This document shows positions 1 through 20,919 of a DNA stretch of 64,000 bases, one piece after another. Position 1 is the first letter of the stretch. Every line of letters begins with the position of its first letter. Below the pieces are notes generated by a model, which saw only the letters and a list, made by a program, of their open reading frames with translations, was not told the DNA's origin and did not search any database. This DNA is from an uncultured Actinomycetes bacterium (GTDB lineage Bacteria > Actinomycetota > UBA4738 > HRBIN12), in NCBI GenBank assembly GCA_963816275.1, contig CAWFJU010000008.1, forward strand, positions 78,111-142,110, given 5' to 3'. A program made the translations under genes and the position numbers.

Positions 1-380
1 CGTCGAACATCAAGAAGGCGACCTTGCCGCCGTCGCCGCGGTGGCCGACGTAGTCGACGACCTCCTTGTGGCCGAGCAGGTAGTTGCAGATCTCCTCGAT
101 CGACTCGAACGCCCGGGGCTCGCGCTCGGACGGCACGAAGACGTTCGGGATGCGTGCCGTCGAACGAGTCGAAGTAGTTGATGAAGCGGAAGTTCCGGAC
201 CCAGCGATCGATGCCCAGCAGGTTGAATGCCGTGGCGCTCACGAAGTAGATCGGGGTCTCGTTCGTGCGGAAGAAGTGCCGGATCGCCGGGATCCCCCGG
301 AGCGGCTCGGACCCGGACGGAGTCGGAGGTCGCCGCGGCCCGAGGCGTCGATGTCGTCGGGGGTGGGTCAGGGGTCGCAT
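1..380 (-). CDS. conserved hypothetical protein, N-terminal part (gene runs off window start); possibly pre-ATP-grasp/ATP-grasp ligase family
   Basis: The minus frame is open from the ATG at 380 to position 1. It is absent from the ORF track because there is no stop in the window. The translation ...IRHFFRTNETPIYFVSATAFNLLGIDRWVRNFRFINYFDSFDGTHPNVFVPSEREPRAFESIEEICNYLLGHKEVVDYVGH has high GC3 and a globular composition. The family guess is from memory only. Confidence 0.45.
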   Translation of the reverse strand, partial: MRPLTHPRRHRRLGPRRPPTPSGSEPLRGIPAIRHFFRTNETPIYFVSATAFNLLGIDRWVRNFRFINYFDSFDGTHPERLRAVRARAPGVRVDRGDLQLPARPQGGRRLRRPPRRRRQGRLLDVR

Positions 381-469
381 CGGCCGGCCCGCGACGCGCG
401 CGCTCGGCTCGTCGGAGCCGGTCACGACGAGCCGCGCCCCGATCACGAGGGCGAGGGTGGCCGCGAGCA

Positions 470-1785
470 TCAGCGATACCCAGATAGCCCGCACCAGTCC
501 CTGATCAGGAGGCCCATGACCTGCGCCGTCTGCACCACGGACGGAAGGTACACCCGTTCTCCGACCCCGTGCGCCTGCTCCGCGTAGGGCCCGAAGCACA
601 CCGCGGGGATGCCGCCGGCGTTCCCGAAGATGCCCGCATCGGTGGTGCCGGTGGTCGACACGAGCGCGGGCGGCGCGCCCGCCTGACGAGCGAACGCGCC
701 CGCGAGCGTCGTGATCAAGGGGTGGTCGTCGGGGATGTCGTAGCCCTCGGAGGCGAAGCCGCCGTACGTGACCTCGGCCATGCCCGGCTGGTCGGCGGTC
801 GCATCGGCCACGACCTGCTCGATCCGTGTTCTGGAGGTCGGCCACCTTCTGGCCGGGGTAGAGGGCGATCCGGTACTGCGTCACGCAGACGCCCGGCACC
901 GTCGAGGCCCAGTCTCCGCCCCGGATCGCGCCAACGTTCAGGCTGATCGGGTTCGTGAACAGGTCGTACGGTGGCGGCGGCGCGGCGTTCATCTCGGCCT
1001 CGAGCTCGCGGAGCGACTGGATCACGGAGAGGCTCTTCTCGATCGCGTTCGTCGCGTTCCGGCCCTCGGCCGCATGGCCCGGTACGCCGGTGATCCGCAC
1101 CTTGAACCAGAGCACGCCGACCTGGGAGGTGGTGATGGCGGCCCCGAACGGCTCGGCCACCACGGCGGCGTCGGCCGTGTAGCCGGCGAGCAGCGTCTGC
1201 AGCGTCCCGTTGCCCGAGCACTCCTCCTCGACGACGGATTCGACGTGCACCGGGGCGCCCGGCGTGAGCCCGAGCCGCCGGAGCGCCCTCACCGCGCCGA
1301 AGATCGCCGCGAGCCCGCACTTCATGTCGGCGGCCCCGCGGCCGTAGACCCAGCCATCCTCGTGGTCGCCGCCGAACGGGTCGCGCTCGCCCCACTGGCT
1401 CAACGGCTCGGGGCTCACCACGTCGATGTGTCCGTTCAGGATCAGCGACCGCCCTCCGTTCGTCGCCCCGCTGCCGGGCGCCCAGGTGGCGACGACGTTC
1501 GCCTTGCCGTCCGTCTCCCAATCGAAGGGCGACGCGAGCGGATGCGCTCGGAGCGCCTCCTCGTCCATGCGGCACGTCGACGGCGTCGAGGTCGAGGTCT
1601 CGAAGCACGTCACGCACGATCACCTGCCCCGCCTCCTCGTTGCCGAGCGTGGTGTCGGCGCGCACGAGCCGCTGCAGGACGTCGGCCATCCATCCGGCCT
1701 CCTCCGCGATCGCATCGAGGATGCGAGCATCCTCGGGATCGGCGGGCTTCGCGCGCCAACTCGTGCGCGAGATCGCCGCGGCCAT
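470..1785 (-). pseudogene. M20 family metallopeptidase (ArgE/DapE-like), reading frame broken twice in this sequence
   Basis: The N-terminus is in the frame of ORF 715..1785 (...VIVRDVLRDLDLDAVDV). The middle lies in a second frame (MDEEALRAHPLASPFDWETDGKANVVATW...LILNGHIDVV...GRGAADMKCGLAA...VEEECSGNG...). The C-terminus is ORF 470..811. The shifts lie near 1569-1575 and 824-828. The HIDVV, GRGAADMK and EEE motifs are typical of M20. Confidence 0.8.
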
Positions 1786-1928
1786 CGAACGCCAGCTGGT
1801 CTGGGTGCGTCTCGTCGGAGGTCAGCCGGCTCCCGCCGTAGGACCCCGTCAGCGCCTCGTCGGGCACGGGCTGCATGGGGGAGAGGGTACACGCGCGTGG
1901 GCATCGCGTCGGAGCGCCGGAGCGCCGG

Positions 1929-1956
1929 TTGACGCATCTGTGTAATGAGGTAATCT
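1929..1956 (+). promoter_or_regulatory. sigma-70-like promoter TTGACG-16nt-TAATCT directly ahead of a leaderless ATG at 1964
   Basis: TTGACG at 1929-1934 and TAATCT at 1951-1956, in an AT-rich patch within a 70% GC context. The ATG lies 8 nt after the -10 hexamer and has no Shine-Dalgarno sequence. Confidence 0.35.
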
Positions 1957-1963
1957 TCGATAC

Positions 1964-2491
1964 ATGACTGATACCACGAACGTCACCGACACGATCCGCG
2001 GCTGGTTCGCCGGCCGACTCCCCGACGACTGGTTCGTCGGCGCGCCGGAGATCTCCGTCGATCGCGACGAGATCCTCGATCGTTGGCACGCTCGCCGAGC
2101 CCGGGCTCGATGCCGACGCCAGCGCCGAGACGCGCGCCGCCGCGCTCGCGTCCCGCATCTCGGGCTTCCGCGAGGACACGCGCGCCCAACGCATGCGGGT
2201 CGCCGACGAGGCGCAGCGACGCTTCGAGCGCAAGGTCTCCTGGGGAGCCGCAGTGCGGCGACCAGCGCCACCTGTTCACGATCTTGAGCGTGCCGGCGAT
2301 GACCCGGCTCCGCTTGCCCGAGCGCCAGGTGCTCGACACCCTGGTGGCCTCGGGGGTCGCGCGGAGCCGGAGCCACGCCCTCGCCTGGTGCGTGCGACTC
2401 GTGGCCGAGCGGCAGGAGGACTGGCTCCACGACCTCCGCGGAGCGCTCCGAGCACGTCGAGAAGGTGCGGTCCGAAGGGCCGAAGGACTAG
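1964..2491 (+). pseudogene. conserved hypothetical protein with a C-terminal ribbon-helix-helix-like segment; three frame changes
   Basis: The protein can be stitched from three frames. Segment 1: MTDTTNVTDTIRGWFAGRLPDDWFVGAPEISVDRDEIL. Segment 2: VGTLAEPGLDADASAETRAA...RMRVADEAQRRFERKVSWGA. Segment 3: CGDQRHLFTILSVPAMTRLRLPERQVLDTLVASGVARSRSHALAWCVRLVAERQEDWLHDLRG. Segment 4: EHVEKVRSEGPKD, ending at the stop at 2489-2491. The shifts lie near 2075, 2245 and 2450. Confidence 0.6.
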
Positions 2492-2879
2492 ACGGGCGCC
2501 GGCGGCTCCGGATCGGTTCCGCCGGCATCGTCGGCCGGCACGCCACTCGACGGATGGCCACGACCAGGTTCATCGCGCTGCTGACGAGCACGACCTCGCC
2601 CTACCGTAGGTCGTCGGGGACGCTCTCTCGGCCCAGGCGCGCCGTCGTCGTGGCGCCGTCCCGGTAGCCGACCGTGACATCGACGTAGCCGCACCCCGTG
2701 GACGTCCAGCCCGCGGACCTCGAGGACCATCGCTTCGCGCTCGCCAAGCATCGAGCGAGACTACCGCAGTGGTCACGCTCGGCCGCATGAGGGCGGAGGG
2801 CCCGATGCGAGGATCGTGCCCGATACCGTCCTACGGCAGATGGCTCAAGCGACTCGAGGCGCCTGCCGACCCTTCCTGC

Positions 2880-4173
2880 ATGGACCGAGGGAGGATCAGG
2901 CACCGCCATCGCCTCCGTGCGCTCGTCCTCGTGGCGGCCACGGGCCTCGCGCTCGTGCCGGCGAACGGCGCACGTGCGGGCGCCGCAGGCGCGGCACCCG
3001 ACCTCACTGCCGGCGAGGCAGGCTCAGGCCCGGCACCGTTCCCGATCGACGTCCCCGAGAGCCGGATGCGCCGGGCGACCTTCAAGTGGTCGGACGTGGA
3101 TGCCAGCGACGCCTGGGCCAAGGACGCGATCAACTTCGTCGGCAAGACGAAGGACTGGATGCGCGACTTCGCGCCCGGCGCCGACGGGAAGGTTCCCTTC
3201 AAACCGGACATGCTCGAGACCCGCAAGTACTTCGCGCGTGCGGCGATCCGGGCCTTCGCGCCGGACCAGGCGATCGATGCCTCGATCACGTTCCCGGACC
3301 TGGAACCCTCGCAGACGTTCTACCGGTGGGCGAACATCGCGGTGAAACTCGGGTGGATGCGCCGCAGCGCCGACGGGCGCTTCGGCCCGGACAAGCCGGT
3401 AACGATGGCGACCGTACACCGCGTGCTGATCCTCGCGCTGGGCATGAAGGACGTCGCCAAGCAGCTCGACAACCTGCACACGCGCGACGGCGTCACCTTC
3501 GGCACGCCCGCCAACTTCGGCGCCCTGATGCTCGGGATGCGCCTCGGCCTTCGCTTCAACAGCTCTGCCGAGGCGAACGACGTCGGTCCGTCGACGCCGA
3601 TGCCTCGTTCCCAGGTCGCGTTCTCCCTGTACAAGGCCGCGAACCTCGAGTCCTGGGTCGTGCCGTACGTGCAGGATCAGTACGACGGGATCGTGCTGCC
3701 GAAACATAGGCCCGTCCCGCCAGGCGATCGTCCGATGGGGCGTGCGGTACATCGGGTACCCGTACGTGTGGGGCGGGGAATGGGGTTTCAAGGCCACCGA
3801 GCCGTCCGCGCTCGGCGGGCAGCCGATCCCGGGGTTCGATTGCTCGGGATTCTCATGGTGGAACCTCCGCGCGAACGATGGCGGTGCGTGGAACATCGCT
3901 CCGCCTCGCCCGTACGACGGGTGGGCCCTCCCCCAGCGCACCTCGGCCGACATGGCCGGCGTCGGCCACCTGAAGTACGACCAGCTCCTGCCCGGCGACC
4001 TGATGTTCTACGACGGGAACGACGATGGAACGGTCGATCACGTCGACATCTACATCGGGAACGGCTACTCGCTCGACTCCTCGAGCACCCCCGGCGGCGT
4101 GACGATCATGTGGGTGGGCGACGGGTGGTACCGCGACCACTTCGTGCACGGCCGCCGCGTCCTTCCCTCGTAG
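2880..4173 (+). pseudogene. secreted NlpC/P60 cell-wall hydrolase with an N-terminal SLH-like region; one frameshift
   Basis: A signal-like N-terminus (MDRGRIRHRHRLRALVLVAATGLALVPANGARA) lies in ORF 2769..4592. The catalytic domain is in ORF 3742..4173 (RYIGYPYVWGGEW...GFDCSGFSWW...DHVDIYIGNG). The frames join near 3700-3715 (...SRQAIVRWGVRYIGYPYVWGG). Confidence 0.8.
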
Positions 4174-4178
4174 GGCGT

Positions 4179-4577
4179 CTACCTCGTCTCGATCGCGGCC
4201 TGCAGGGCAGCCCGCTCCGGCTCGGTGAGCGGACGGCTCCTCCCGCTCTTCCGATCCCTCGGGACGATCACCGCCTCGGCCTCGGCTGCCACCGTGCCGT
4301 CGGCTTTCACGATCGCTTCGCGCGTCTTCACGCTGGAGCGCCCGATCCCGGCGATCGCGCATCGGACCGTGATCTCACCGTCGTCTTGCGTGAGCTCGTT
4401 GCGGAAGTCGATCCCGACGTGGGCGAGCACGAAGTCCCACGCACCCTGGGAGCCCATCAGCGCCTCGATGGCCCGATCCCGGCACTCCTCCAGGTAGTTC
4501 AGGTACACCCCGTTGTTGACGTGGCCGTACGCGTCCATGTCGCGCCACCTGATCGTGATCGTCACCTCGGTCGCCAT
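4179..4577 (-). CDS. acyl-CoA thioesterase, 4HBT/YbgC hot-dog fold
   Basis: The start is taken at the internal ATG (MATEVTITIRWRDMDAYGHVNNGVYLNYLEECR...). The D-x-x-GHVNN motif is typical of YbgC-type thioesterases. Confidence 0.8.
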   Translation of the reverse strand: MATEVTITIRWRDMDAYGHVNNGVYLNYLEECRDRAIEALMGSQGAWDFVLAHVGIDFRNELTQDDGEITVRCAIAGIGRSSVKTREAIVKADGTVAAEAEAVIVPRDRKSGRSRPLTEPERAALQAAIETR

Positions 4578-4604
4578 GGCGCGCCATCCTAGCCCGGGAC
4601 GGCA

Positions 4605-4636
4605 GGAAGCCCCGAGTCGGGGGGACTCGGGGCTTC
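4605..4636 (-). terminator. perfect 14-bp GC-rich hairpin downstream of the MFS-cNMP gene
   Basis: GGAAGCCCCGAGTC-GGGG-GACTCGGGGCTTCC, located between the MFS stop (4728) and the thioesterase start (4577). There is no U-tract. Confidence 0.5.
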
Positions 4637-4727
4637 CGTTCGGAGAGAGGGGCTCCACCTGTGCGTTCGGTACGCCTCGCGCGGCGGTTCGATCCGAGTT
4701 GTTGCGGTTCCGTGACGGCGGATCGCG

Positions 4728-6416
4728 TCACCCCTCGCGGCCGAGCTCCTCCAACCGCCGGTCGATCAGGTCGTTCGCGCGGACCGCACTCGGCCGCGAC
4801 CCGGTCACGGCCGCGAGGAATTCGGCGCGGCTGAGCGCCAGCAGCTCGGAGGGTTCGATCGCGGTCACGCTCGCGGTGCGGGGCACGTCACGCAACAGCG
4901 CGATCTCGCCGAACTGATCGCCGTCGGAGAGTTCGGCCACCGCGCGACCATCGGCCTCCACCGACAGGCGCCCGTGCTCGACGACATAGAACCGATCACC
5001 CGGGTCACCCTGACGGATCACGACGGTGCCGGCCGAGACCTCGAGGCGCTCGAGGTTCCGGGCGACCCGCTCAAGCACCGGCTGCGCGAGCGGCGCGAAG
5101 AGCGCGATCCGCCGGAGCGCGACGACCTCGGGTCCGGGCCTCGTCGCCCGGGCCTCGACCAGGCGGAGCTGGGGCCACGCGACCAGTCCCGCCACCGGGA
5201 GGAACGCGCCGGCGACCACGAGCGCCCCCCGGCTCCCGAACCCCGCGATCAGGAGGGGCGCCGCCGCGGATCCGGCCGCCAGCCCGAGCATCACGAGAGC
5301 CTCTTGCACGCCGAAGACCCGGGCGAGCATCTCGTCGGGGACGGATCGCTGCAGGAGCGTACGGGCCGCCACGTCGAAGAAGGTGCGGCCGGCGCCGCAG
5401 ACGATGAGGAACACGATCGCGCCGGGGAGCCCGGCCACGACGATGCCGACCGCGGCGAGGCTCGCTCCGCACACGACGAGGCCGAGCTGCATCGCCGGCG
5501 TGAGGTGCCGGCGGCCGACGAGCGCGACCGAGGCAGCCGCCCCGATCAGCCCGCCGACACCCATCGCCGCGGCGAGGAAGCCGGCGGCCGACTCGCCCAC
5601 ATCCAGCACGTCGATCGCGAGCAGAGCGTAGAAGACATCGAGGAGGCCCACGACCACGAACTGCACGCCGCCGAGGAGGAGGAGCATCGAGGCTCCGGGC
5701 TCGCGCCGGAGCTCACGGGCGCCCGCGGCCGCTGCGGCCACCACGCCCTCGGGGCTGACGTGCTCGGGCTCCGGCTCGCCGGCGCCGTGATGCAGCGGGA
5801 GCTGCACCGTGAGGAGGCTGGCCGTGACCAAGAACCCGGCGGTGACCGCCACGACGAACGCGGGGCCCGCGATCGCGAAGCCCACCGCGGCGAACATCGG
5901 GCCGACGAGCACGCCGACGCCCTCGACGCTGCTCGACGCGGCGTTGGCGGCCGTGAGTTCCTCGGGCGTCTCGGCGAGGTGCGGGAGGATCGCGTTGTGA
6001 ACGGGGCGCGTGAGCGTGATCGCGCAGCTCGCGACGACGGCCGCGGCGTAGGCGGCCAGGGGCGGAGCCTTCCACAGCGCGAGCGCCAGCAGGAGGTCCG
6101 TCGCGGCCTGGATCGCGTAGCCCAGGCCGAGGGCCCGATCGCGGCGCATCCGGTCCCCGAAGGTCGCCCCGAGCGGAGCCACCAGGGCCGCGGGCACGAG
6201 CTGCGCCACGAGGACGAGGCCCGTGACCGTGGCGCCCCCGCGCTGGAACGCGAAGACCGACACGGCGATCCACACCGCCGCCTCTGCCGCGCTGAACTCC
6301 TGGAACGCGAAGAGCACGCGGACCAGAGCTCGGTTCCGCAGGATCGTGAAGAGCACGCGAACGGCGTCTCGGATCGGCACGGCGAGCGCGGACCTTTCTG
6401 AGAGGGCTGCGCGCAT
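4728..6416 (-). CDS. MFS transporter fused to a C-terminal cyclic-nucleotide-binding domain
   Basis: Intact 562-aa ORF. About 420 aa form a multi-TM MFS-like region. The C-terminus then reads RQGDPGDRFYVVEHGRLSV...GDQFGEIALLRDVPRTASVTA, the classic cNMP-binding FGE..L....RTA motif. Confidence 0.85.
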   Translation of the reverse strand: MRAALSERSALAVPIRDAVRVLFTILRNRALVRVLFAFQEFSAAEAAVWIAVSVFAFQRGGATVTGLVLVAQLVPAALVAPLGATFGDRMRRDRALGLGYAIQAATDLLLALALWKAPPLAAYAAAVVASCAITLTRPVHNAILPHLAETPEELTAANAASSSVEGVGVLVGPMFAAVGFAIAGPAFVVAVTAGFLVTASLLTVQLPLHHGAGEPEPEHVSPEGVVAAAAAGARELRREPGASMLLLLGGVQFVVVGLLDVFYALLAIDVLDVGESAAGFLAAAMGVGGLIGAAASVALVGRRHLTPAMQLGLVVCGASLAAVGIVVAGLPGAIVFLIVCGAGRTFFDVAARTLLQRSVPDEMLARVFGVQEALVMLGLAAGSAAAPLLIAGFGSRGALVVAGAFLPVAGLVAWPQLRLVEARATRPGPEVVALRRIALFAPLAQPVLERVARNLERLEVSAGTVVIRQGDPGDRFYVVEHGRLSVEADGRAVAELSDGDQFGEIALLRDVPRTASVTAIEPSELLALSRAEFLAAVTGSRPSAVRANDLIDRRLEELGREG

Positions 6417-6458
6417 CCTCCCGGCCGATCACCGGGCCGGTCAAACCCCGGAACGCGG

Positions 6459-6482
6459 AACGGGGGCCCGAGGGCCCCCGTT
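6459..6482 (-). terminator. GC-rich hairpin downstream of groEL
   Basis: AACGGGGGCCC-GA-GGGCCCCCGTT, 27 nt after the groEL stop (effectively about 9 bp of stem). The U-tract is weak. Confidence 0.45.
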
Positions 6483-6508
6483 CGGGTGGTGCGATGAGAC
6501 GGCCGGAC

Positions 6509-8182
<1,674 letters not shown>

Positions 8183-8209
8183 CTAGCACTCATGCATGCC
8201 GAGTGCTAA
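8183..8209 (-). promoter_or_regulatory. CIRCE operator (HrcA binding site) upstream of groEL
   Basis: CTAGCACTC-ATGCATGCC-GAGTGCTAA. This matches the TTAGCACTC-N9-GAGTGCTAA consensus at 17 of 18 arm positions and lies 49 nt upstream of the groEL ATG. Confidence 0.9.
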
Positions 8210-8259
8210 CGATTGTAGCCGGAACGACCCCCGACGTGGCAAGGGACTTCCGCCATCGC

Positions 8260-8694
8260 TCAGTCGCGGGCGGACCACAGGAGGAGCGGCGGGAGCGCGA
8301 TCACGCCCAGCACCGCCGCTCCGCCCCTGAAGTCGGTGAGCATCAGGGGGACCACGACGGCCGCCCACAGCGCGAGCGCACCGAGTACCCAGGCGAAGCG
8401 CGGGCGGTACCGGTGGCCGGCACGCCAGTCGGCGACCTGCCGCCACGCGATCACGCCCGGAACGATCAGGAGGAGGGTTCCGAACCCCACGCCGAGCACC
8501 GCCAGCCACAGGGCGGGTCCGTCGGTCCGAGTGCGCCAGCTCGCTGATGGTGGCGGCGCACGCCAGTCGTCGGGGTCCTCGCCGGGACTCGAGACCGCGG
8601 GCGCCTCACCGGACCGCGGGGCCAGCCGGTCCAGCAGGTCGCCCTTCGACGCACGTCGGCGACGGCGGCGGTCGTCTCGCGACGTCGCCGTCAC
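8260..8694 (-). CDS. hypothetical membrane protein (paralog of the upstream gene)
   Basis: A GTG start at 8694 overlaps the upstream stop (GTGA). The protein has an Arg-rich N-terminus, a DDWR motif and then about 3 hydrophobic helices (ALWLAVLGVGFGTLLLIVPGVIAW...FAWVLGALALWAAVVVPLML...). Confidence 0.6.
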   Translation of the reverse strand: MTATSRDDRRRRRRASKGDLLDRLAPRSGEAPAVSSPGEDPDDWRAPPPSASWRTRTDGPALWLAVLGVGFGTLLLIVPGVIAWRQVADWRAGHRYRPRFAWVLGALALWAAVVVPLMLTDFRGGAAVLGVIALPPLLLWSARD

Positions 8695-9098
8695 CCCCTG
8701 AGCACGTACGCCACGCTCGCGAGCGGTCCGACGACGGCCAGCGCGATCGTGAGCCCCGCGAGGTCGGTGAACATCGCGAGCGAGCCGAGGATCGCCGCCC
8801 AGATCCCGAGCACCGCCACCACCCACGCCGCCGAGGGCTGCAGGATCGCACCGTCGCGCCAGCGGCGGTAGCTGCGGAGCGCGATGATCCCCGGCACGAC
8901 GAGCATCAGGAACCCCAGCACGATGCCGAGCTGGGCCACGACGCGCGGCGCACCCTCCGTCGAGTACCGCCAGGCATCATCGGGGGGCGGCGTCTCCTGC
9001 TCGACACGATCGATGTCCTTGCGGCCGAGCGCGCGGCCCGCGGGCCCGACGAGCGGGCCGCGGCGATCTCGGGGGCGGGGCATCTGCGGCGTCGACAT
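8691..9098 (-). CDS. hypothetical membrane protein (paralog of the downstream gene)
   Basis: 135-aa ORF with the same architecture: PPPDDAWRY...VVAQLGIVLGFLMLVVPGIIALRSYRRW...AAWVVAVLGIWAAILGSLAMF... Confidence 0.6.
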   Translation of the reverse strand: MSTPQMPRPRDRRGPLVGPAGRALGRKDIDRVEQETPPPDDAWRYSTEGAPRVVAQLGIVLGFLMLVVPGIIALRSYRRWRDGAILQPSAAWVVAVLGIWAAILGSLAMFTDLAGLTIALAVVGPLASVAYVLRG

Positions 9099-9186
9099 GC
9101 TCGTCCATCATGGGCCACGAAGGACCGTCCGGCACACCCGCGCTAGGCTGCTGCCGCACCCGAGCCGGAGGAGCGACGCATTGGCC

Positions 9187-10985
9187 ATGTCCGACGCACC
9201 ACTCTGGCAACGACGATTCACCGCCCCTCGGATCGACCAGGTCGACTGGCCGCTCGCCGCCCCGGACCAGCTCGGCGTCGTCTCGAACGAGGGCGGCTCG
9301 TCGCAGGCGTGGTCGTGGGAGCTCGCGAGCGGCGAGCGACGGCGCGCGTCGCGCGGCGGGGTGGGCGCGGAAGAGGTGCACGTGACCCCCGACGGTGCCG
9401 GCGTGGTCTGGTGGCTCGACCCGAACGGCGACGAGCGGGGACGGTGGATGGTGACCCCGTTCGAGGGCGGAGCGGCCGGTCCCGCGATTCGACGTGGCCG
9501 ACGGGTGGGCGATGGGCCTGTCGATGGTCGCCGGGGCGTCGGCGTTCGGGCTGGCCGACGACGAGGGGTACGCGATCTACGTGCAGCACGGCGATGGGTC
9601 GCCGACGGCGATCTACCGCCATGCGCGCCCGGCGGGCGTCGGCATGGAGTGGCCGAACGGGTCCGGGCGGGCTGTCGGCCGACGCCACGTTGCTCGCGAT
9701 CCGTCATGCCGAGGACGAGCGACATCGCGCGGCCCGCGGTCCGCGTCCTCGACGCGCACACCGGCGAGGCGATCGGCGAGGTCGTCGACGAAGGGCTCCG
9801 CGCCGAGCCCGCGGGGTGGTCCCCCGTGCCCGGCGACCAACGGCTCGTGCTGATCCGGGAGCTCGACGACATCGAACGTCCGTGGCTCTGGGACCTCTCG
9901 TCCGGCGCGCTCGACGAGCTGCCCGTGGGGCTCCCGGGCGCGGTCTTCCTCGAGGACTGGTACCCGGACGGGTCGGCCGTGCTCCTGCGTCACTCGCACG
10001 AGGCGCGCGATCAGCTCGTGCGGCTCGACCTCGCGACGGGGGCCGTCACCGAGCTCGGGCCGCTCGACGGCACGATCTCCAACGCGCGGGTCCGCCCCGA
10101 CGGCGACATCTGGATGCGGATCGAGCGGGGCACGCACGCGCCGCGGATCCGAGGACCTCGACGGACGCGAGGTGCTCTCGCTCGGCGGCGAGCGCGCCGG
10201 CCGGCCGCCCCTTCGAAGCCGGTCTGGTTCGAGAACCCGCACGGCGACCGTATCCAGGGATGGCTGATCCGCCCCGAGGGCGAGGGGCCGTTCCCGACGA
10301 TCGTCTCGGTGCACGGCGGCCCCGAGTACCACAACACCGATGCGTTCGATCCCCGCAGGCAGGCGTTCGTCGACCACGGGTACGCGGTGCTGCTCGTGAA
10401 CTACCGGGGGTCGACCGGCTACGGCGCGGCGCTTCCGGCAGGCCCTGCAGGGGAACATCGGCTTCCCCGAATCCGAGGACATCATCGCGGGGCTCGACCA
10501 CCTGATCGCGACCGGGGTGACCGACCCGGACCGCGTCGCGATCGAGGGATGGTCGTGGGGCGGCTACCTCGCCACGCTCAACGCCGGCCGTCACCCCGAC
10601 CGATGGAAGGCCGTCATCGCCGGGATCCCCGTCGGCGACTACGTCGCGGCCCACTACGAGTGCGCGCCCGCGTTGCGCGCGTGGGACCTCGCGACGCTCG
10701 GCGGCTCACCGATGGAGCTGCCCGAGCTCTACGCGGAACGGAACCCGATGACGTACGTGGACGACGTCCGGGCGCCCGTGCTGATGATCGCCGGCGACCA
10801 CGACAGCCGGTGCCCGCTCGGCCAGGTGATGGTGTACGCCCACGCGCTCAAGGCACCGGGGTCGCGAGGTCGAGGTGCACCTCTACCCCGGCGGCCACCA
10901 CGCGAACGACGTCGACGAGCAGATCGCCCACGTCGAGCTGATGCTGGACTTCCTCGGGCGGCACCTCGGGGCGAACGCCCGCTAG
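9187..10985 (+). pseudogene. S9 family serine peptidase (prolyl oligopeptidase / acylaminoacyl-peptidase type), about 7 frame changes
   Basis: Segments are spread over all three + frames: MSDAPLWQRRFTAPRIDQV...; ...ADGWAMGLSMVAGASAFGLADDEGYAIYV...; ...VRVLDAHTGEAIGEVVDEGLRAEPAGWSP...; ...FRQALQGNIGFPESEDIIAGLDHLIATGVTDPDRVAIEGWSWGGYLATL... (GWSWGG nucleophile elbow); and ...EVEVHLYPGGHHAND...RHLGANAR, ending at the stop at 10983-10985. Confidence 0.8.
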
Positions 10986-11402
10986 AAGCCCCAGGTCACC
11001 ACGCGGTCGGCCCGTACCTCGACGATGATCGACGCGCCTTCGTCGATCGGCGCCTCGCGTTCGTACTGCGGGTACTTCTCGTAGAGCAGGGCGCGATCGC
11101 GCTCGAACTCGAACCCCGAGTCGATCACGTAGGCCTCGCCGTGCACGATCACCTGCTTGAGGCGCGACCAGTCCTCGTCGTACTCGTCGAACCCGATCGC
11201 GACGTTCGGGTTCCCCTCGAGGTTGCGCACCTTCGTCGTGTCGCGCTCGGTCGCGAAGACGAGTCGGTCGAGATCGAGCACCGGCGAGATCGGCACCACG
11301 TGCGGCCGGCCGTCCGGGTAGACGGTCGCCAGGTATCCGACCCGTCGGCTCCGCGACGAACTCCGCCTCGGCCCGTCCGAACATCGGTCCGTCGACGGAC
11401 AT
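10982..11402 (-). pseudogene. pyridoxamine 5'-phosphate oxidase (PPOX) family / F420-type flavin-binding protein, one frameshift
   Basis: The N-terminus [21 protein letters not shown] lies in the frame of ORF 10848..11402. It then continues as ...[53 protein letters not shown]... (ORF 10982..11299). The shift lies near 11335. Confidence 0.7.
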
Positions 11403-13366
<1,964 letters not shown>

Positions 13367-13552
13367 TGTCGTCCTCCGTGTGTGGCGAGAGGGCTGCATC
13401 GTACGCAGGAAGGGGCCTCGGTGCCGACCGGACGCTCGGACGCCCGATGTGCTTGCAACCGTGCGCACGCGGGGCCACCATCGTGCGTGAGCCGCCCACC
13501 GAGGCGGCTTCGAGGTTGATGGGGCCTCGCGGGAGGGGAAGGAGAACGAGGG

Positions 13553-13735
13553 ATGGCCGAGACCGCGTACTGCATGAAGTGCCGCGAGAAGCGTGAATTC
13601 GAGGGCCAGGTCGTGACGATGAAGAACGGGCGGCCCGCCTCTCAGGGCACCTGCCCCGTGTGCGGCACGAAGATCCAGCGGATCCTGGGGCAGGACGAGG
13701 CGAAGTCCCGCGGTTGGTCGCCGCCCGCCTCCTAG
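13553..13735 (+). CDS. small zinc-ribbon protein (DUF5679-like)
   Basis: 60 aa: MAETAYCMKCREKREFEGQVVTMKNGRPASQGTCPVCGTKIQRILG. It has a CxxC...CxxC arrangement and a purine-rich RBS (GGGAGGGGAAGGAG) upstream. Confidence 0.75.
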   Translation: MAETAYCMKCREKREFEGQVVTMKNGRPASQGTCPVCGTKIQRILGQDEAKSRGWSPPAS

Positions 13736-13744
13736 GCGAGCCCG

Positions 13745-14218
13745 CTAGTTCAGCCGCGACAACAGCTGTTCCGGGGCGATGAACGCCTGCCCCGGCGTGC
13801 TCGTCCGGTGGCGGGCCGCGAGGTCCGCCACCGTCGTCTGACGGAACACGTCCTGCACCGCCCGGGCCACATCGGCCCAGAACCCTTGCAGCCCACACCG
13901 TGAGTCCTGGAAGCACGTGTGGTCCGAGGGCTCGAGGCAGAACATCGGGAAGATCTGGCCCTCGATCGCGTCGGCGATCTCGGCCATCGTGATCTCCTCG
14001 GGCGCGCGGGCGAGCCGGCATCCGCCCCCCGCGCCACGGAAGCTCTCCACCAGCCCCGCCTTCGAGAGCGCCCCGAGCTGCTGCTCGAGGAACCGCACCG
14101 GGATCTGCTGACGCTCGGCGATCTCGCGCGCGGGCACGAGGACGTCCTCGTCGCGGTGCTGGGCGAGCTCGATCATGGCGCGCATCGCGTATTCGAGCTT
14201 CTGGGAGATCTTCAGCAC
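13745..14218 (-). CDS. Rrf2 family transcriptional regulator
   Basis: A GTG start at 14218 follows ACAGGAGG. The translation VLKISQKLEYAMRAMIELAQHRDEDVLVPAREIAERQQIPVRFLEQQLGALSKAGLVESFRGAGGGCRLA shows the classic Rrf2 N-terminal wHTH. Cys residues in the C-terminus could bind an Fe-S cluster. Confidence 0.85.
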   Translation of the reverse strand: MLKISQKLEYAMRAMIELAQHRDEDVLVPAREIAERQQIPVRFLEQQLGALSKAGLVESFRGAGGGCRLARAPEEITMAEIADAIEGQIFPMFCLEPSDHTCFQDSRCGLQGFWADVARAVQDVFRQTTVADLAARHRTSTPGQAFIAPEQLLSRLN

Positions 14219-14375
14219 GGGGCGCCTCCTGTCGTCCCAGCGTAGGTGGGGGTTCTGGCCCGTCAACGCGCGGCCGTAGCGGTTCCCTGGTTCCGGGTAT
14301 GAGGCAGCGCTCGCAGGGCGTGCCGACAACTCTGTAGGGGGAACGAGGGTCCCCCAGGAGGAGGACAAGGCAGCC

Positions 14376-14838
14376 ATGGTTCGCGTACTCGTGATCGACG
14401 ACGAGCCCGACGTGCTGCTGCTGTGCCGCGTGAACCTGCGGCACGACGGGCACGAGGTGCTCGAGGCGCCCGACGGCGCGACGGGTCTGGCGATGGCCGC
14501 CGAGTCGCCGCCCGACGTGGTGGTGCTCGACCTGATGCTGCCCGCGATGGACGGCTACGAGGTGCTCGCGGCGCTCCGCGGCTCGGCGGCGACCGAGACG
14601 TGCCGATCCTGGTGCTGAGCGCGAAGGCGCAGGTCGAGGAGCGGCGCCGGGCGTTGCGAGTCCGGCGGCGATGTCGTTCCTCGCGAAGCCGTTCGCGCCC
14701 GAGCAGCTCGCCGAGGCCGTCCGCGAGCTCGCGACGCTCGATCCCGACGGCACGCGCCGAGGCACGGCGAGCGGCGCTCGGGAGCAACTCGAGGACGGAG
14801 CGACCCTGAGCCGAGGTCAGGCGATCGTGGCGGCGTAG
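14376..14838 (+). pseudogene. stand-alone response-regulator receiver (CheY-like), 3 frame changes; 3' end uncertain
   Basis: The segments are MVRVLVIDDEPDVLLLCRVNLRHDGHEVLEAPDGATGLAMAAESPPDVVVLDLMLPAMDGYEVLAALR, then GDRDVPILVLSAKAQVEERRRAL, then ESGGD., then FLAKPFAPEQLAEAVRELA. The shifts lie near 14588, 14657 and 14675. Confidence 0.7.
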
Positions 14839-15357
14839 TCGTCGCCGACCACGACGACGACCTGCGTCGTCTTCTTCACGAGGTCGTCGATCGTCGGGAT
14901 CGAGCTCTTCGACCTTCGCGCCCTTGAAGTACTTCTTGGCCATGGCGGTCGCGTTCGACTCGTTCTGCGCGGCTGCGGCGCCACCCCGGAAGTACACGAT
15001 CGTCTTCGGCACCGGCTTCGAGGGGGCATCGAGCGCGTGGGCGTTGATCGTGTACCCCTTGCCCTCGAGGAAGTCCTGGGCCGTCGCGCCGAGCCCGGTC
15101 ACGTTCGTGCCGTTGAAGACCTGGATCAGCACTCCGTCGGTCCTGCGGGCTCGGCGTCTGCGGCGGCGGTCGGCGACACGGTTCCGCGTCGGCGATCCGC
15201 TGGGCGACTCGGTGGCGGACGCGGTCCCGCTGGGCCCGCCGCCCGGCTGCAGCGCGATCCGCCGTCGGCGAATCCGTTCGCGAGCACGGCGGCGCCCACG
15301 ACGAGCAGCGCGACGATCACGACGATCCGGCCGGTTCCCAGGTTCACGGCGCGCCAT
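14817..15357 (-). pseudogene. LytR_C (LytR/CpsA/Psr C-terminal) domain membrane-anchored protein, at least 2 frame changes
   Basis: A TM anchor VNLGTGRIVVIVALLVVGAAVLANGF lies in one frame. VLIQVFNGTNVTGLGATAQDFLEGKGYTINAHALDAPSKPVPKTIVYFRGG...AMAKKYFKGAKVEELDP lies in a second, and TIDDLVKKTTQVVVVVGDDYAATIA in a third. The start is either the ATG at 15357 or the GTG at 15347. Confidence 0.7.
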
Positions 15358-15358
15358 C

Positions 15359-15676
15359 CTACCCCAGCGCCCCGTGCGTGCCCGCTCGCCTCAGAGGCGG
15401 ACACCGAGCTGCCCCGCGACCCGCCTGCCGGCGACGCGCCTCGCGCACGCGACGGAGCCTGCGGACGAGCATCGGGTCGTAGGCGAGCGCCGCCGGAGTG
15501 TCGATGATGCGATGCAGCAGTTGGTGGTACCGGGCCGCCGAGAAGCCGAAGCGTTCGCGGATCGCCCGCTCCTTCGCGATCGTGAGCTTCCAGCCCTCGC
15601 GCTCGAAATCGAGGATCTCGCGGGATCGGTCGTCGAGCTCGGTGCGGGCGTGATCGGGCGTGTCGGGGATGGTCAC
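15359..15676 (-). CDS. DUF3263 domain protein
   Basis: 105 aa: ...LDDRSREILDFEREGWKLTIAKERAIRERFGFSAARYHQLLHRIIDTPAALAYDPMLVRRLRR, as remembered for the actinobacterial DUF3263 family. Confidence 0.65.
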   Translation of the reverse strand: MTIPDTPDHARTELDDRSREILDFEREGWKLTIAKERAIRERFGFSAARYHQLLHRIIDTPAALAYDPMLVRRLRRVREARRRQAGRGAARCPPLRRAGTHGALG

Positions 15677-15810
15677 GCGCCAAGGCTACCCAGCGGCACC
15701 GACGGTTCAAGCACCTCGGCACGCAACGTCGATGCTGATGGGAAGCGGCGGCGGCGCGAGGATGAGAGCATCGGAGCCACCGGGCCTGGCCGGGACGAGA
15801 GGCGGAACGG

Positions 15811-17998
15811 GTGTCCGAGGGTGAGCGGATGACGAGCGCGGACGACGGACGATTCAGGTCGGTCGCGCAGCTCGACATGCTGCACAGCCTCGCCGCCAAG
15901 CTGAACGCCCTGGGCGACGTCGCCGAGATCGGCGCGGCGATCACGGCCGAGCTCCGCACGATCATCGACTACCACAACTGCCGCGTGTATCTGCTCGAGC
16001 CCGACGGCGTCACGCTGATGCCGATCGCGTTCCGCGGCGAACTCTTCCACGAGTACGAGGAGGAGACGCTCGAGGAGCTGATCACGAAGGTGGGTGAGGG
16101 GCTGACGGGCCACGTCGCCGCGACCGGCGAGTCGCTGCTCACCCCGAACGCCCAGGAGGTCGAGTTCTCGATCCAGATCGAGGGGACCGACGACATCGTC
16201 GAGTCGATGCTCGTGGTCCCGATGAAGCTCGGCGAGCAGGTCACCGGCGTGATCGTGCTCTCGAGCCTCGGCTACGGCAAGTTCGACGAGGAGGACCGGC
16301 GCCTCCTGGAGGTGCTCGCCTCGCACGCCGCGGTCGCGTTCGAGAACGCCACGCTGCTCCAGGCGGAACGCCATGCGGCCGAGACCTCGGCCGCCCTGTT
16401 GCGCCTCTCCCAGGCGCTCACGAGGATGCGCTCGATCGGCGACGTCTTGCAGGAGGCGCTCGAAACGATCCCATCGCTCGCACCCTGCTCCGTCGCCGGG
16501 GCGTACGTGGTCGAGCCCTCGTCGGGAGACTTCCGGCTCGTCCGGCTCCACGAGGTGATCGAAGGCACCGCCCGTGCCAGGGCCGAGATCGCCGACGTCT
16601 CGCACGAGGTGGCTGACCGCATGCTCCTGAGCCAGACGTCGACCCGTTCGTGATCGAGGACGCCGCGATCCGGGAGCTCCCGCACGAACTCTTCATCGCG
16701 ATCGATCCCAACGAGGTGCTCGTCGCGCCGCTCCGCTGGGATCCCTCAGGGTTCGGCGCGCTCGTGCTCGTGGCGCCCCAGGGCGCTCGGCCGTACGGGG
16801 CGGAGGACCTACGGATGGCGGGGGGCCTGGCCGACATCACGTCGCTCGCGCTCGGGAACGCACGCCGTCTCTCCGAACTCGAGCGGTTCCACGAGCTCGT
16901 CGAGAGCCTCGATGCGGTCTTCTGGGAGGCGGACGCCACCACCCTGTCCTTCACCTTCCTCGGCGGAAGGGCCGAGGAACTGCTCGGCCCGACGGCGCTC
17001 CGGTGGCCGAGCCGAGCAGCGGCCCTGGGGCTCGCACATCGACCCGCAGGACCGTGGCGACGCGATGGAGGCGATGCGCCGGGCCGCGAGCGAGGGCCAC
17101 GACCAGGAGCTCGAGTACCGCATGCGAACCCCCGAGGGCGAGAACGTCTGGATCCGCGACCTCGTCGCACGTGGTGACGGGCGCGCAAGGCGCCCGACAA
17201 CTCCGGGGACTCATGGTCGACGTGACCGAGCGCAAGCGCGCGGAGCAGGCACTCCGTGAGAGCGAGCGGAAGTACTCGGAGGCGTTCAAGCGAGAGCGCG
17301 AGGCCGCCCAGCGGCTCCGGGCGCTCGACGAGATGAAGAACACGTTCCTCGAGGCCGTCTCGCACGACCTCCGCACCCCGCTCACCTCGATCCTCGGATC
17401 CGCGCTGACCCTGGAGCGGACGCGGATGGAACTCCCCCGCGAGGACGCGGTCGATCTCGTCCACCGGATCGCGGCGAACGCCCGCAAGCTCGAACGGCTG
17501 CTCTCGGACCTGCTCGACCTCGACCGGCTGCAGCGCGGGATCGTGTCACCTCAGCGACGGCCGACCGAACTCGACCTGCTCGTGCGCCGGGGCGTGGAGG
17601 AGACCGAGAATCCGAGCGGACACACGATCGAGGTCGAGGTCGAGCCGGCCGTGGTCTCGATCGACGCCGCGAAGGTCGAGCGGATCCTCGAGAACCTGGT
17701 CTCGAACGCGATCCGTCACACCCCGGCGAGCACCCGGATCTGGGTTCGAGCGCGGGCTCAGGACGGCGGCATGCTCCTGATCGTCGAGGACGAGGGGCCG
17801 GGCGTGCCGAGGGACCTGCACGAGGCGATCTTCGAACCCTTCCGGCAGGTGCCGGGCTCGGAGTCGGGCCACTCGCCCGGGGTCGGCGTCGGACTCTCGC
17901 TCGTCCTGCGGTTCGCCGAACTCCACGGCGGCCGTGCCTGGGTCGAGGACCGACCGGGCGGCGGCGCGATCTTCACGGTGTTCCTGCCCGCGGGATGA
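15811..17998 (+). pseudogene. GAF-GAF-PAS sensor histidine kinase (HisKA + HATPase_c), 3-4 frame changes
   Basis: The first GAF domain is in ORF 15811..16653 (IIDYHNCRVYLLEPDG...GLTGHVAATGESLL). The second GAF-like region is in ORF 16650..17177. PAS fragments (HIDPQDRGDAMEAMRRAASEGHDQELEYRMRTPEGENVWIRDLV) lie in a third frame. The kinase core is in ORF 17003..17998 (EMKNTFLEAVSHDLRTPLTSI...NLVSNAIRHTP...DEGPGVP...GVGVGLSLV). The shifts lie near 16632, 16995-17020 and 17165. Confidence 0.85.
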
Positions 17999-18007
17999 GG
18001 ACGTGAA

Positions 18008-18044
18008 GGACCGGGCGGCGGGGGGTACGGCCGCCGCCCGGTCC
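18008..18044. terminator. 14-bp GC hairpin between convergent genes (histidine kinase and DsrE2-like)
   Basis: GGACCGGGCGGCGG-9nt-CCGCCGCCCGGTCC. Confidence 0.45.
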
Positions 18045-18048
18045 CGAG

Positions 18049-18068
18049 CTCCCGGATATGTCCGGGAG
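18049..18068. terminator. second small hairpin in the same convergent gap
   Basis: CTCCCGGA-TATG-TCCGGGAG. Confidence 0.35.
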
Positions 18069-18085
18069 CGATCCGCCGATCGCCT

Positions 18086-18619
18086 CAGATGAACAGCGTG
18101 ACGGCGTCGCGAGCCTCGAGGAGCGCGGTCGTCGCGCCCGCCGGCTCCTCGAGCCCATCGATCAGGTCTTCCTTCGTGAGGCCCGAGCAGGTCCATCGTC
18201 ATCTGGCACGGGACGAGGTGGACACCCAGGTCGCGCGCGACCTCGAGCAGCTCCGCCGGCGAGGCCACGTGGTGCTCCTCGGCGAGCTTCTTCATCATCG
18301 CGGGGCCGGCCCCGGCGAAGTTCATCTTGCCGAGCTTCAGGTGCTCGGTGCCGCCGCGGTTCATCATCGACATCATCTTCTGCATCCAGTTCTCGCCGGT
18401 GATGTGCACGTCGTTGCGCACCAGCGGGAAGAGCCCCCAGAAGGTGAAGAAGATCGTCGTCTCCATGCCCATCGCGGCGCCGGTCGTGCCGAGGATGAAC
18501 GTCGGCCAGATCTTGTCGAGGTCGCCGCTCCAGGCCATGATCACGAGCTTGTCGTGCGGCACGTGCTCGGGCGCCGGAGCTCGCTCCGGCGCCTCGAGGG
18601 TCGCTTCGGTGGTCGCCAT
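18086..18619 (-). pseudogene. DsrE2-like (DsrE/DsrF family) sulfur-relay protein with a hydrophobic N-terminal half; single frameshift
   Basis: MATTEATLEAP...KLVIMAWSGDLDKIWPTFILGTTGAAMGMETTIFFTFWGLFPLV...GVHLVPCQMTMDLLG, then LTKEDLIDGLEEPAGATTALLEARDAVTLFI in a second frame. One extra C in GGGCCTCAC near 18180 explains the break. Confidence 0.75.
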
Positions 18620-18624
18620 CGTGC

Positions 18625-18861
18625 TCACCCCTTCTTGCGGATCACGAAGCGGAAGACGCCCGCGTCCTCGGTCTGCTCGACGAGCTCGTTCCCCGTCGAG
18701 GTGCACCACGCCTTGAAGTCCGGCACGGAGCCCGGGTCGGTGGCGAGGGACTCGATCAGCTCGCCCGGCTGCAGGTCGCGGATCCCCTGCGCGGTCTTCG
18801 CGATCGGCATCGGGCAGGAGAGCCCCTTCAGGTCCAGCGTCTTGGCGATCGTCTCGGTCAT
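18625..18861 (-). CDS. tusA: TusA/SirA family sulfur carrier
   Basis: 78 aa: MTETIAKTLDLKGLSCPMPIAKTAQGIRDLQPGELIESLATDPGSVPDFKAWC...FRFVIRKKG. The Cys-Pro-x-Pro active-site motif is present. Confidence 0.85.
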   Translation of the reverse strand: MTETIAKTLDLKGLSCPMPIAKTAQGIRDLQPGELIESLATDPGSVPDFKAWCTSTGNELVEQTEDAGVFRFVIRKKG

Positions 18862-18876
18862 CGCGGTACCCCTTCC

Positions 18877-20061: not shown

Positions 20062-20067
20062 CGGGGA

Positions 20068-20346
20068 TCACCGAGCCTTCCGGATCACGAACCGCGTGAA
20101 GCCGTCCTCCTCGACGACCTCGACCAGCTCGTGCTGCGCCTTCTGGACCCACGCGGGGATGTCCGACTTCGAGCCCTCGTCGCTCGAGAGCACCTCGATC
20201 ACGTCTCCGACCTGTCCCTCGCGGATCGCGCCGATCAGCGTCATCAGTGGTCCCGGGCACGCCATGCCGCGGGCATCGATCGAACGCGTTACCACTGCCG
20301 TCGTCTCTCCTGGTTGCACTACCGCATCCGCTCCTTGAGTGCTCAT
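20068..20346 (-). CDS. tusA: TusA/SirA family sulfur carrier (second copy)
   Basis: The start is taken at the internal ATG. The translation is MSTQGADAVVQPGETTAVVTRSIDARGMACPGPLMTLIGAIREGQVGDVIEVLSSDEGSKSDIPAWVQKAQHELVEVVEEDGFTRFVIRKAR, with a CPGP motif. Confidence 0.85.
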   Translation of the reverse strand: MSTQGADAVVQPGETTAVVTRSIDARGMACPGPLMTLIGAIREGQVGDVIEVLSSDEGSKSDIPAWVQKAQHELVEVVEEDGFTRFVIRKAR

Positions 20347-20357
20347 GTCGCTACCTC

Positions 20358-20762
20358 CTAGATGAACGTCACCGGGCCCTCGGCCTCCATGAAGAAGGAG
20401 GCGACGCCCCAGATGCCGTCCACCATCGGGTCGAGATCGTCCTTCGTGATCTCGAACATCTCCATCGAGTCCGCGCATGCCTGGATCTGGACCTCGCCGA
20501 GGTCCTTGGCCTGCGCGAACAGTTCGCTCCAGTGGGTCTTGCCCTGGGCCTGCATCGCCCGCTGCCCGGCCTCGCCGGCCTCGGGCGACACCCCGTGATC
20601 CTTCAGCACGCGGTCGGCACGGAACGCGTCGAGCGCCCAGTACTGGAGGAAGACGTTGACCTTGCGGCCCATCGCCGCGGCCCCGACCGCCAACACCGCA
20701 GCCGCTTGGAGCTTGTCGTCGGTTCCGGAGAACAGCACCAGCGAAACGGTGTCGTCACTCAT
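20358..20762 (-). CDS. DsrE/DsrF-like family protein (soluble, DsrE3-like)
   Basis: The start is taken at the internal ATG. The translation is MSDDTVSLVLFSGTDDKLQAAAVLAVGAAAMGRKVNVFLQYWALDAF...EVQIQACADSMEMFEITKDDL... The conserved Cys context is as remembered for the DrsE_2 family. Confidence 0.75.
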   Translation of the reverse strand: MSDDTVSLVLFSGTDDKLQAAAVLAVGAAAMGRKVNVFLQYWALDAFRADRVLKDHGVSPEAGEAGQRAMQAQGKTHWSELFAQAKDLGEVQIQACADSMEMFEITKDDLDPMVDGIWGVASFFMEAEGPVTFI

Positions 20763-20913
20763 CGCGTACCCCTTTCCGTGTACCCCTGTTCCTATACGAC
20801 AAGCATCCACCGGGCTCGGGACCCGCGTTGGGGGCGGCGGACCCACGGCAGGTGGGACCTTCCGGGACCCAAGGCGGGAATATCGGCGGACGGCCTGAGG
20901 TTCGCGCGGCGGC

Positions 20914-20919
20914 TAGGAT
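20914..20919 (+). promoter_or_regulatory. -10-like TAGGAT hexamer 9 nt before the D-aminoacylase ATG (probable leaderless transcript)
   Basis: GCTAGGATGCCGCTCCGATG. There is no Shine-Dalgarno sequence. Confidence 0.25.

Follow-up and report, generated by a model that had tools for sequence, protein, structure and literature searches.

Clustered frame breaks in two tracts of a 64-kb contig stretch most probably reflect consensus error, not gene decay

The first 18 kb of the window (the whole 64,000-nucleotide stretch of DNA analysed here) is crowded with split reading frames, raising the question of whether its genes are decaying in the organism or were broken only in the deposited sequence. 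By combining a codon-usage Viterbi analysis with alignment to four related contigs, we identified about 36 frameshifting indels in coding sequences between positions 149 and 18181, comprising 33 insertions and 3 deletions. The initial annotation, which counted about 28 disruptions in the first 18 kb, was right about their clustering but had slightly under-counted them. The tally was 32 insertions versus 5 deletions in the pairwise alignments and 33 versus 3 in the three-way alignment, with a binomial p value of 7e-6 for the excess of insertions. Same-strand frame changes were called by the Viterbi analysis at 822, 1571, 2076, 2243, 2447, 3701, 9467, 9657, 9719, 10212, 10431, 10852, 11342, 11926, 12205, 12980, 14596, 14663, 16634, 17000, 17165, and 18185, thereby reproducing nearly every junction listed previously.

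The events fell into two broken tracts, tract A (149-3705) and tract B (9477-18181, starting at 9.1 kb if intergenic events are counted), at a density of approximately 2.5-3 per kb inside them. Between the tracts lies a clean gap of 5.8 kb (3705-9477; counting one intergenic insertion moves its end to 9101), and a gap of such a size has a probability of about 5.5e-5 under uniform placement. The last 46 kb of the window contains only one or two breaks, and the p value for no more than 2 of 39 events in the final 45.8 kb is 2e-18. These data uphold the earlier description of two blocks flanking a clean one that is improbable by chance, followed by a scarcity of breaks after 18.2 kb; one further event, at 149, lies upstream of the first break noted there. 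In a stop test, the segments at the frame changes did not terminate at an in-frame stop, and nearly all coding segments between 18.9 and 64 kb terminated at their own stop, with an exception at about 25606 in rlmB. Intergenic DNA was also struck by +1 insertions (9101, 13369, 18059, 18078, and 18084). GC content did not separate the clean from the dirty tracts, and the sequence itself offered no visible cause for the sharp tract borders.

The relatives used for comparison were L001/L012 (a MAG), L009 and L010 (JGI metagenome contigs), and L013 (an NCBI MAG contig). L001/L012, which comes from a Nanopore MAG (PMC12313526), is collinear with the window at 88% nucleotide identity. No same-species sequence (>95% identity) was found in scans of genome collections and metagenomes, the best match showing 96% amino-acid and 88% nucleotide identity; exact-sequence queries with the groEL and MFS-cNMP proteins of the window gave no match. 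Unfiltered tblastn searches of the relatives' proteins against the window were swamped by compositional matches in this 70% GC DNA, and only their high-identity segments were used. Pairwise, three-way, and four-way alignments showed that every one of the indels occurs in the window alone, being absent from the related loci covering each gene, whatever the sequencing project. Gene order is unchanged in all four relatives, and each of their orthologs lies in a single frame. The intactness of orthologs, which the initial annotation had suggested checking, extends across a clade of 80-93% nucleotide identity. Gene order across the tract borders is also kept wherever a relative's contig crosses them (four relatives at the first border, five of five loci at the second); therefore, the contig is not a structural chimera. 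Downstream of tract B, the indels at 18182-23440 relative to L012 are only multiples of 3 or intergenic.

Tract A opens in the 3' part of an upstream gene (1-500, minus strand), where a private G is inserted at 149 relative to L001 and the frame switches at 150/151; its L001 counterpart is one frame of 1653 nt (550 codons). The following gene, a peptidase M20 (476-1876, minus strand; Pfam label taken via the ortholog), contains three private +1 insertions (830, 1573, and 1743-1749). The next one (1964-2491, plus strand; +1 at 2079, 2250, and 2448/2449), formerly labelled an RHH-like hypothetical, is to be renamed an Rv1265-family protein based on the Pfam assignment of its ortholog (PF27105/PF27540). 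A small hypothetical ORF of 77 codons (2496-2730, minus strand), doubtful as a real gene, has a +1 at 2692, and the +1 at 3705 in the NlpC/P60 gene (2805-4173, plus strand) is the final event of the tract. The subsequent clean stretch (3706-9100) contains no frameshifting indel in its coding sequences, namely a 4HBT thioesterase (4179-4577), MFS-cNMP (4728-6416), groEL (6509-8134), and a pair of small membrane genes that are paralogs of each other (8276-8698 and 8691-9098).

In tract B, the peptidase S9 gene (9187-10979, plus strand) is the most heavily hit, with seven +1 events (9477, 9662, 9716, 10152, 10217, 10431, and 10856) and one -2 event (10193). The DNA just upstream carries two more events, one of +1 (9101) and one of -1 (9134). 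A four-way alignment showed the S9 events in the window only and in none of L010, L001, and L009. The S9 gene is followed by a PNPOx-like gene (10982-11402, minus strand; +1 at 11352) and the acetyl-CoA synthetase gene acs (11403-13366, minus strand; +1 at 11415, 11907, 11962, 12205, and 12981), whose GTG start adjoins a further +1 at 13369. The frame breaks previously assigned to these genes were confirmed, but the minima given per gene were too low for M20 (3, not 2), S9 (8, not 7), and acs (5, against at least 4). Two small genes inside the tract, DUF5679 (13553-13735, plus strand) and Rrf2 (13745-14218, minus strand), are intact, which is unremarkable because about 3 events per kb would give only about 2 expected events at 13553-14218. 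The response-regulator receiver gene (14376-14808, plus strand) carries a -1 at 14597, +1 events at 14657, 14674, and 14751, and a +2 at 14779; its 3' end aligned poorly. For LytR_C (14817-15347, minus strand), +1 events at 14894 and 15188 and a -1 at 15255 were located, and the pairwise alignment hinted at a few extra, ambiguous events. DUF3263 (15391-15676, minus strand) has a +1 at 15429. The Pfam domains of the GAF-GAF-PAS-HisKA-HATPase histidine kinase (15829-17998, plus strand) are spread over four frames, with a +2 at 16633-16639 and +1 events at 17010-17013 and 17166 relative to L012, while its ortholog is a single protein of 721 aa. The tract closes with a +1 G at 18181 relative to L012 in the DrsE_2 (DsrE2-like) gene (18085-18619, minus strand), at which break the DrsE_2 Pfam match ends (profile position 127 of 156).

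When the private bases were removed, every named gene became full length with no internal stops, the only exception being the doubtful ORF at 2496-2730, which retained one stop. The repaired genes showed 80-95% amino-acid identity to L001 (94% for M20, with no stops), and the repaired acs covers 100% of its 652-aa homologs, 120 of 120 among the matches listed being full length. The dN/dS values of the repaired broken genes were 0.07-0.17 in seven cases (0.084 for M20 and 0.072 for the Rv1265-family gene) and about 0.3 in two poorly aligned ones, compared with 0.03-0.17 for the clean genes. With L013 as the outgroup, the window branch carries 250 synonymous codon changes in the broken genes and 60 non-synonymous ones, versus 295 and 82, respectively, for the sister, whose orthologs are intact; for the clean genes, the window-private changes were 91 and 20. 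The dirty tracts show no substitution excess: their window-to-sister ratio of synonymous changes is 0.85, compared with 0.90 for the clean genes. Despite its 8 breaks, S9 has accumulated no more than 34 private synonymous changes and 12 non-synonymous ones, whereas the intact L010 gene has more (47 and 35); likewise, of the 652 residues of the repaired acs just 1 is private, and the protein is the ingroup sequence nearest the outgroups. Neither the L013 outgroup test nor the S9 and acs comparisons found relaxed purifying selection on the window lineage, and the affected genes are under ordinary purifying selection up to the present.

The profile of the insertions was then considered. All three codon junction types were struck (16, 9, and 8 of the 33 insertions), with no codon-phase preference, and the composition of the inserted bases was close to uniform. 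About one third of these bases extend a same-base run of 2-3 nt, which is not above chance; the link to homopolymers that is usual for the errors left in nanopore and HiFi data is absent, which counts against this particular class of error but not against artefacts in general. No shared motif was enriched at 32 insertion sites. Methylation or another site motif was rejected as a candidate, there being only a weak GAC/GTC enrichment, which arises because A or T is inserted into the common GC dinucleotide. Also rejected was a mixed-strain consensus that writes both wobble alleles: it predicts insertions beside third codon positions, but 16 of the 33 lie at the 1|2 junction, and the bases on either side are mostly identical to those of the relative.

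Stray +1 bases that are private to the window and lie in genes evolving like healthy ones argue for a sequence-quality artefact, not for gene decay. The frame breaks are thus best read as errors of the deposited consensus and not as mutations of the organism, to which we assign a probability of about 0.93 from comparative sequence evidence. Such an artefact is localised, apparently affecting two contig tracts and leaving the intervening stretch and the next 46 kb almost error-free. Of the two explanations left side by side in the initial annotation, the mosaic contig with indel errors stands in its error part, with events that are private, almost all +1, phase-blind, and in genes under purifying selection. 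Isolated insertions outside homopolymers do not make up the classic nanopore pattern.

The other explanation put forward there, genuine pseudogenisation of non-essential genes in two neighbourhoods by reductive evolution, was contradicted by all of the evolutionary tests made here. Pseudogene-rich genomes shaped by reductive evolution are known from Mycobacterium leprae and from recent host-restricted symbionts, and the window resembles such decay in that many adjacent genes are frameshifted, no obviously essential gene is among those affected in the first 18 kb, and the chaperone gene groEL between the tracts is intact. However, selection on the window's own branch is not relaxed, the repaired named genes lack nonsense codons, and there are neither large deletions nor IS insertions, the lesions being all of 1-2 nt. 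Moreover, bacterial pseudogenes show a deletional bias, opposite to the 33:3 ratio of insertions to deletions observed here. With five to eight independent frameshifts in a gene, neutral substitutions should be far more numerous than the at most 12 private non-synonymous changes in S9 and the 1-2 in acs; in addition, the lesions are shared with no relative, lie several at a time in otherwise pristine-looking genes whose clade orthologs are intact, and strike intergenic positions in the tracts as well (9101, 13369, and 18059-18084). Real pseudogenisation is therefore effectively excluded, and we regard it as very improbable. Even less credit is given to a real but extremely recent burst of template-independent single-base insertions in two tracts of about 4 and 9 kb, which might arise, for example, if the tracts had been resynthesised by an insertion-prone repair polymerase and caught in one clone before selection acted.

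Slightly more plausible than decay, but still improbable, is post-assembly corruption, likewise an artefact, in which the extra bases would stem from a polishing tool, a merging tool, or data handling and not from raw read error. The insertion-only, context-free events with their near-uniform base composition, the sharp borders, and the lack of an accompanying substitution excess would fit such a process, although the 3-5 deletions and two +2 events speak against a single mechanical rule; sequence alone does not tell corruption of this kind from a low-depth consensus. Recoding, that is, expression of the genes via programmed +1 frameshifting or transcriptional slippage, has a next-to-negligible chance. 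Nearly all events require a shift of the same sign and, as in prfB, a +1 shift would restore the reading frames. Programmed +1 ribosomal frameshifting of the prfB type, however, uses single sites with a defined motif that are conserved across orthologs, whereas the window has as many as 8 sites in one gene, no common slippery or stop-codon motif at 32 sites, no counterpart in any ortholog, and non-coding sites too.

Returning to consensus error, the tracts may be segments whose consensus was derived from few or unpolished insertion-prone long reads, for which low local depth, a contig end, or a long-read gap fill between well-supported segments would be candidate settings. Random, non-homopolymer, substitution-free insertions are presumably closer to a low-depth PacBio-CLR-type consensus than to nanopore homopolymer errors. 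Gene-fragmenting indels are a well-described trait of long-read (meta)genome assemblies, where they are quantified with truncated-ORF tests and are the target of proovframe and Kastor (PMC9262707; bioRxiv 10.1101/2021.08.23.457338; PMC12007338). As in these assemblies, private single-base indels split conserved genes of the window into adjacent ORFs, reference-guided removal gives full-length proteins, and the density varies along the contig. The commonest long-read error class consists of homopolymer-length errors, mostly deletions (PMC8812927, PMC9262707), for which the window profile is atypical: its events are almost all insertions, non-homopolymer, without substitution errors, and limited to two sharp tracts of 3.6 and 9 kb in a nearly perfect 64 kb.

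The significance of these findings is limited to annotation hygiene: the genes should be treated as intact after frame correction. Without it, false calls of pseudogenes or split ORFs would result for fourteen genes of the first 18 kb, for rlmB, and perhaps for ftsH, and it would be wrong to conclude that this uncultured actinobacterial lineage has undergone genome reduction or has lost acetate activation (acs) or a two-component system. The case also indicates that artefact and decay can be told apart without reads, by the polarity of private indels together with lineage-specific dN/dS from a few related contigs.

Beyond 18.2 kb, where the window is otherwise clean, the housekeeping gene rlmB and probably also ftsH are each hit by one break of like sign, which further favours consensus error. 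The rlmB gene (24917-25740, minus strand) has one isolated frameshift at about 25600-25610, consistent with the break noted earlier near 25608 and evident from both the frame change and the missing in-frame stop at about 25606; the frame there shifts in the sense that a +1 insertion would produce. For ftsH (48758-50740, minus strand), the previously suspected 5' end indeed lacks a start codon in frame with the conserved N-terminal region, and a frameshift at about 50650-50740 is possible. The sole upstream ATG lies in the frame expected after one inserted base.

Because the GC content of the window is about 70%, long spurious ORFs occur in all frames, and frameshifts are therefore not demonstrable from ORF lists alone. 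A codon-usage model was trained on 13 long, clean window genes and applied in a Viterbi pass with seven states, one for each of the six frames and one for non-coding sequence. Same-strand frame changes in the first 18.7 kb were located at 822, 1571, 2076, 2243, 2447, 3701, 9467, 9657, 9719, 10212, 10431, 10852, 11342, 11926, 12205, 12980, 14596, 14663, 16634, 17000, 17165, and 18185, which essentially recovers the break positions listed in the initial annotation. A stop test, which tells frameshifts from ordinary gene borders, showed that nearly all coding segments between 18.9 and 64 kb are closed by their own in-frame stop, mostly ≤20 nt away, the sole exception being at about 25606 in rlmB. 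The frame-changed segments in the first 18.7 kb run for hundreds of bases without such a stop. The events were concentrated in two tracts, 149–3705 (about 2.5 per kb) and 9477–18181 (about 3.2 per kb). For the empty interval between them (3705–9477), the probability was about 5.5e-5 under uniform placement over the first 18 kb and about 3e-8 at tract density; for the last 45.8 kb to contain no more than 2 of the 39 events, it was 2e-18. The clustering noticed earlier was thus real and had been slightly understated, with about 36 coding frameshifts now counted.

We next compared the window with related contigs. L001 was recovered when species-representative genomes were scanned with the MFS-cNMP protein; it is part of a 1.05-Mb contig of MAG MFD05674.bin.1.236, whose catalogue was built from Nanopore reads with Flye assembly and one Medaka round (PMC12313526). 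Its reverse complement is collinear with window 1–16852 at about 88% identity, and L012, obtained from the same contig via its acs (acetyl-CoA synthetase) protein, carries the comparison to 23440. Two JGI contigs, L009 and L010, cover 3926–14093 and 7494–11157, respectively, and an NCBI MAG contig, L013 (about 81% identity), covers 1071–18049 and served as the outgroup. Gene order is identical in all these relatives and their contigs extend past the clean stretch on either side (L010 only across the second border), indicating that the window is not a structural chimera.

In L001/L012 each gene occupies one frame or one ORF, and nearly every frame change of the window corresponds to one extra base relative to them. 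The frameshifting indels were private to the window in three-way alignments of each gene (four-way for the S9 peptidase). About 36 lie in coding sequence, namely 33 insertions (31 of +1, two of +2) and 3 deletions: eight in the S9 peptidase gene; five each in acs and the receiver gene; three each in the M20 peptidase, Rv1265-like, LytR_C, and GAF-GAF-PAS kinase genes; and one each in the upstream gene, a 77-codon ORF, and the NlpC/P60, PNPOx, DUF3263, and DrsE_2 genes. According to Pfam, the second GAF and the PAS domains of the kinase are divided between frames, and the DrsE_2 match ends at profile position 127/156. From 18181 to 23440, where the comparison with L012 ends, there were no frameshifting coding indels, only multiples of three or intergenic ones. 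The gene at 1964–2491 (+), initially an RHH-like hypothetical, has orthologs in both relatives that match Pfam Rv1265_N and Mb1296_C (PF27105/PF27540). A compact cluster at 18085–20762 (DrsE_2, TusA, pyridine-nucleotide disulfide oxidoreductase, TusA, DrsE_2) looks like a sulfur-trafficking locus; it is kept in L012, and only its first DrsE_2 gene carries an insertion (18181).

The initial annotation had offered two explanations, indel errors and reductive decay, and five independent lines of evidence (polarity, repair, lineage-specific change, acs, and blindness to coding) agree on the former. Bacterial pseudogenes are biased towards deletions of varied size; here, insertions outnumbered deletions by 33:3 in the three-way alignments and by 32:5 in the pairwise alignment (p = 7e-6). 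Once the private bases were deleted, all named genes gave full-length, stop-free translations. Their dN/dS values against L001 were 0.07–0.17 in seven genes and about 0.3 in two that align poorly; the clean neighbours lie in the former range (thioesterase 0.17, MFS-cNMP 0.11, groEL 0.03). When private codon changes were polarised by L013, the broken genes had 250 synonymous and 60 non-synonymous changes on the window branch, compared with 295 and 82 for their intact orthologs on the sister (L012) branch; the clean genes had 91 and 20 on the window branch. In the S9 peptidase gene, with eight breaks, 34 synonymous and 12 non-synonymous changes were private to the window; its intact counterpart in L010 had 47 and 35. 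The repaired acs (five breaks) spans 652/652 residues of its homologs, has one private residue, and is the nearest to the outgroups among 25 ingroup sequences. The insertions were spread over the three types of codon junction (16, 9, and 8), shared no common motif at their sites, extended a same-base run in only about one third of cases, and also occurred in intergenic DNA within the tracts, where no substitution excess was found.

To acquire five to eight genuine frameshifts one after another, a gene would need a long neutral period, for which the substitution counts leave no room. Reductive decay is rejected. Pseudogene-rich reductive genomes differ from the window in showing relaxed selection, mixed deletion-biased lesions, and shared lesions, and programmed frameshifting differs in that its sites have a conserved motif and recur in orthologs. 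It is highly improbable that the single bases were really inserted, very recently, in a burst limited to the tracts. The extra bases are window-private, almost all insertions, and coding-blind, in genes that evolve normally and without substitution excess; we therefore regard them as most likely (probability about 0.93) consensus-sequence errors concentrated in two tracts rather than a biological feature. Gene-fragmenting indel errors in long-read assemblies are well documented (PMC9262707; 10.1101/2021.08.23.457338; PMC12007338), and the window breaks belong to this class, with an unusual insertion-only, tract-limited profile. Nanopore assemblies are usually described with a homopolymer-deletion signature (PMC9262707, PMC8812927). 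The insertion profile of the window does not match that signature. It is presumably closer to a low-depth consensus of PacBio-CLR-type reads. The two tracts may rest on insertion-prone reads that were few or unpolished, or may have had different processing from the remaining sequence; candidate causes are low depth at these places, the end of a contig, or gap filling with long reads. Introduction of the bases by a tool or data handling, also an artefact, is a possible but much less likely origin.

Beyond 18.2 kb, the only breaks previously suspected were in rlmB and possibly at the ftsH 5′ end, with which the stop test and a missing ftsH start agree. The rlmB gene (24917–25740, −) has one frameshift at about 25600–25610, its N-terminal part lying in another frame (ORF 25482–25736), and the phase shifts in the direction that a +1 insertion would give, as in the dirty tracts. 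In ftsH (−), the conserved N-terminus at 50640–50745 is in frame with the gene and has no ATG, GTG, or TTG before it, and an upstream ATG sits in the frame expected after a one-base insertion, probably through a further isolated +1 error, here in an essential gene. As both are housekeeping genes, these breaks fit error better than decay.

Two stretches, 33320–33975 (656 nt) and 37594–37992 (399 nt), gave no Viterbi coding signal and no Rfam family at the gathering threshold; the latter sits upstream of a long minus-strand gene (35107–37593). Relative to L012, 38 additional intergenic bases (20 + 18) at 20305–20346, between TusA and the second DrsE_2, look like real lineage-specific sequence rather than error. 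Relative to L001, the window has a 13-nt insertion, GCGAGCCCGCTAG, at 13736–13748, between the facing 3′ ends of the convergent genes DUF5679 and Rrf2; it terminates in CTAG, identical to the bases before it, and could be a genuine duplication of small size. At 8276–8698 (−) and 8691–9098 (−) lie two paralogous genes in tandem, each for a small membrane protein. The former copy is present in the window and L010, absent from L001/L012 and L009 (whose alignments skip 8245–8680), and apparently absent from L013, where one gene was called at this position, a distribution that resembles tandem duplication, or loss, specific to a lineage.
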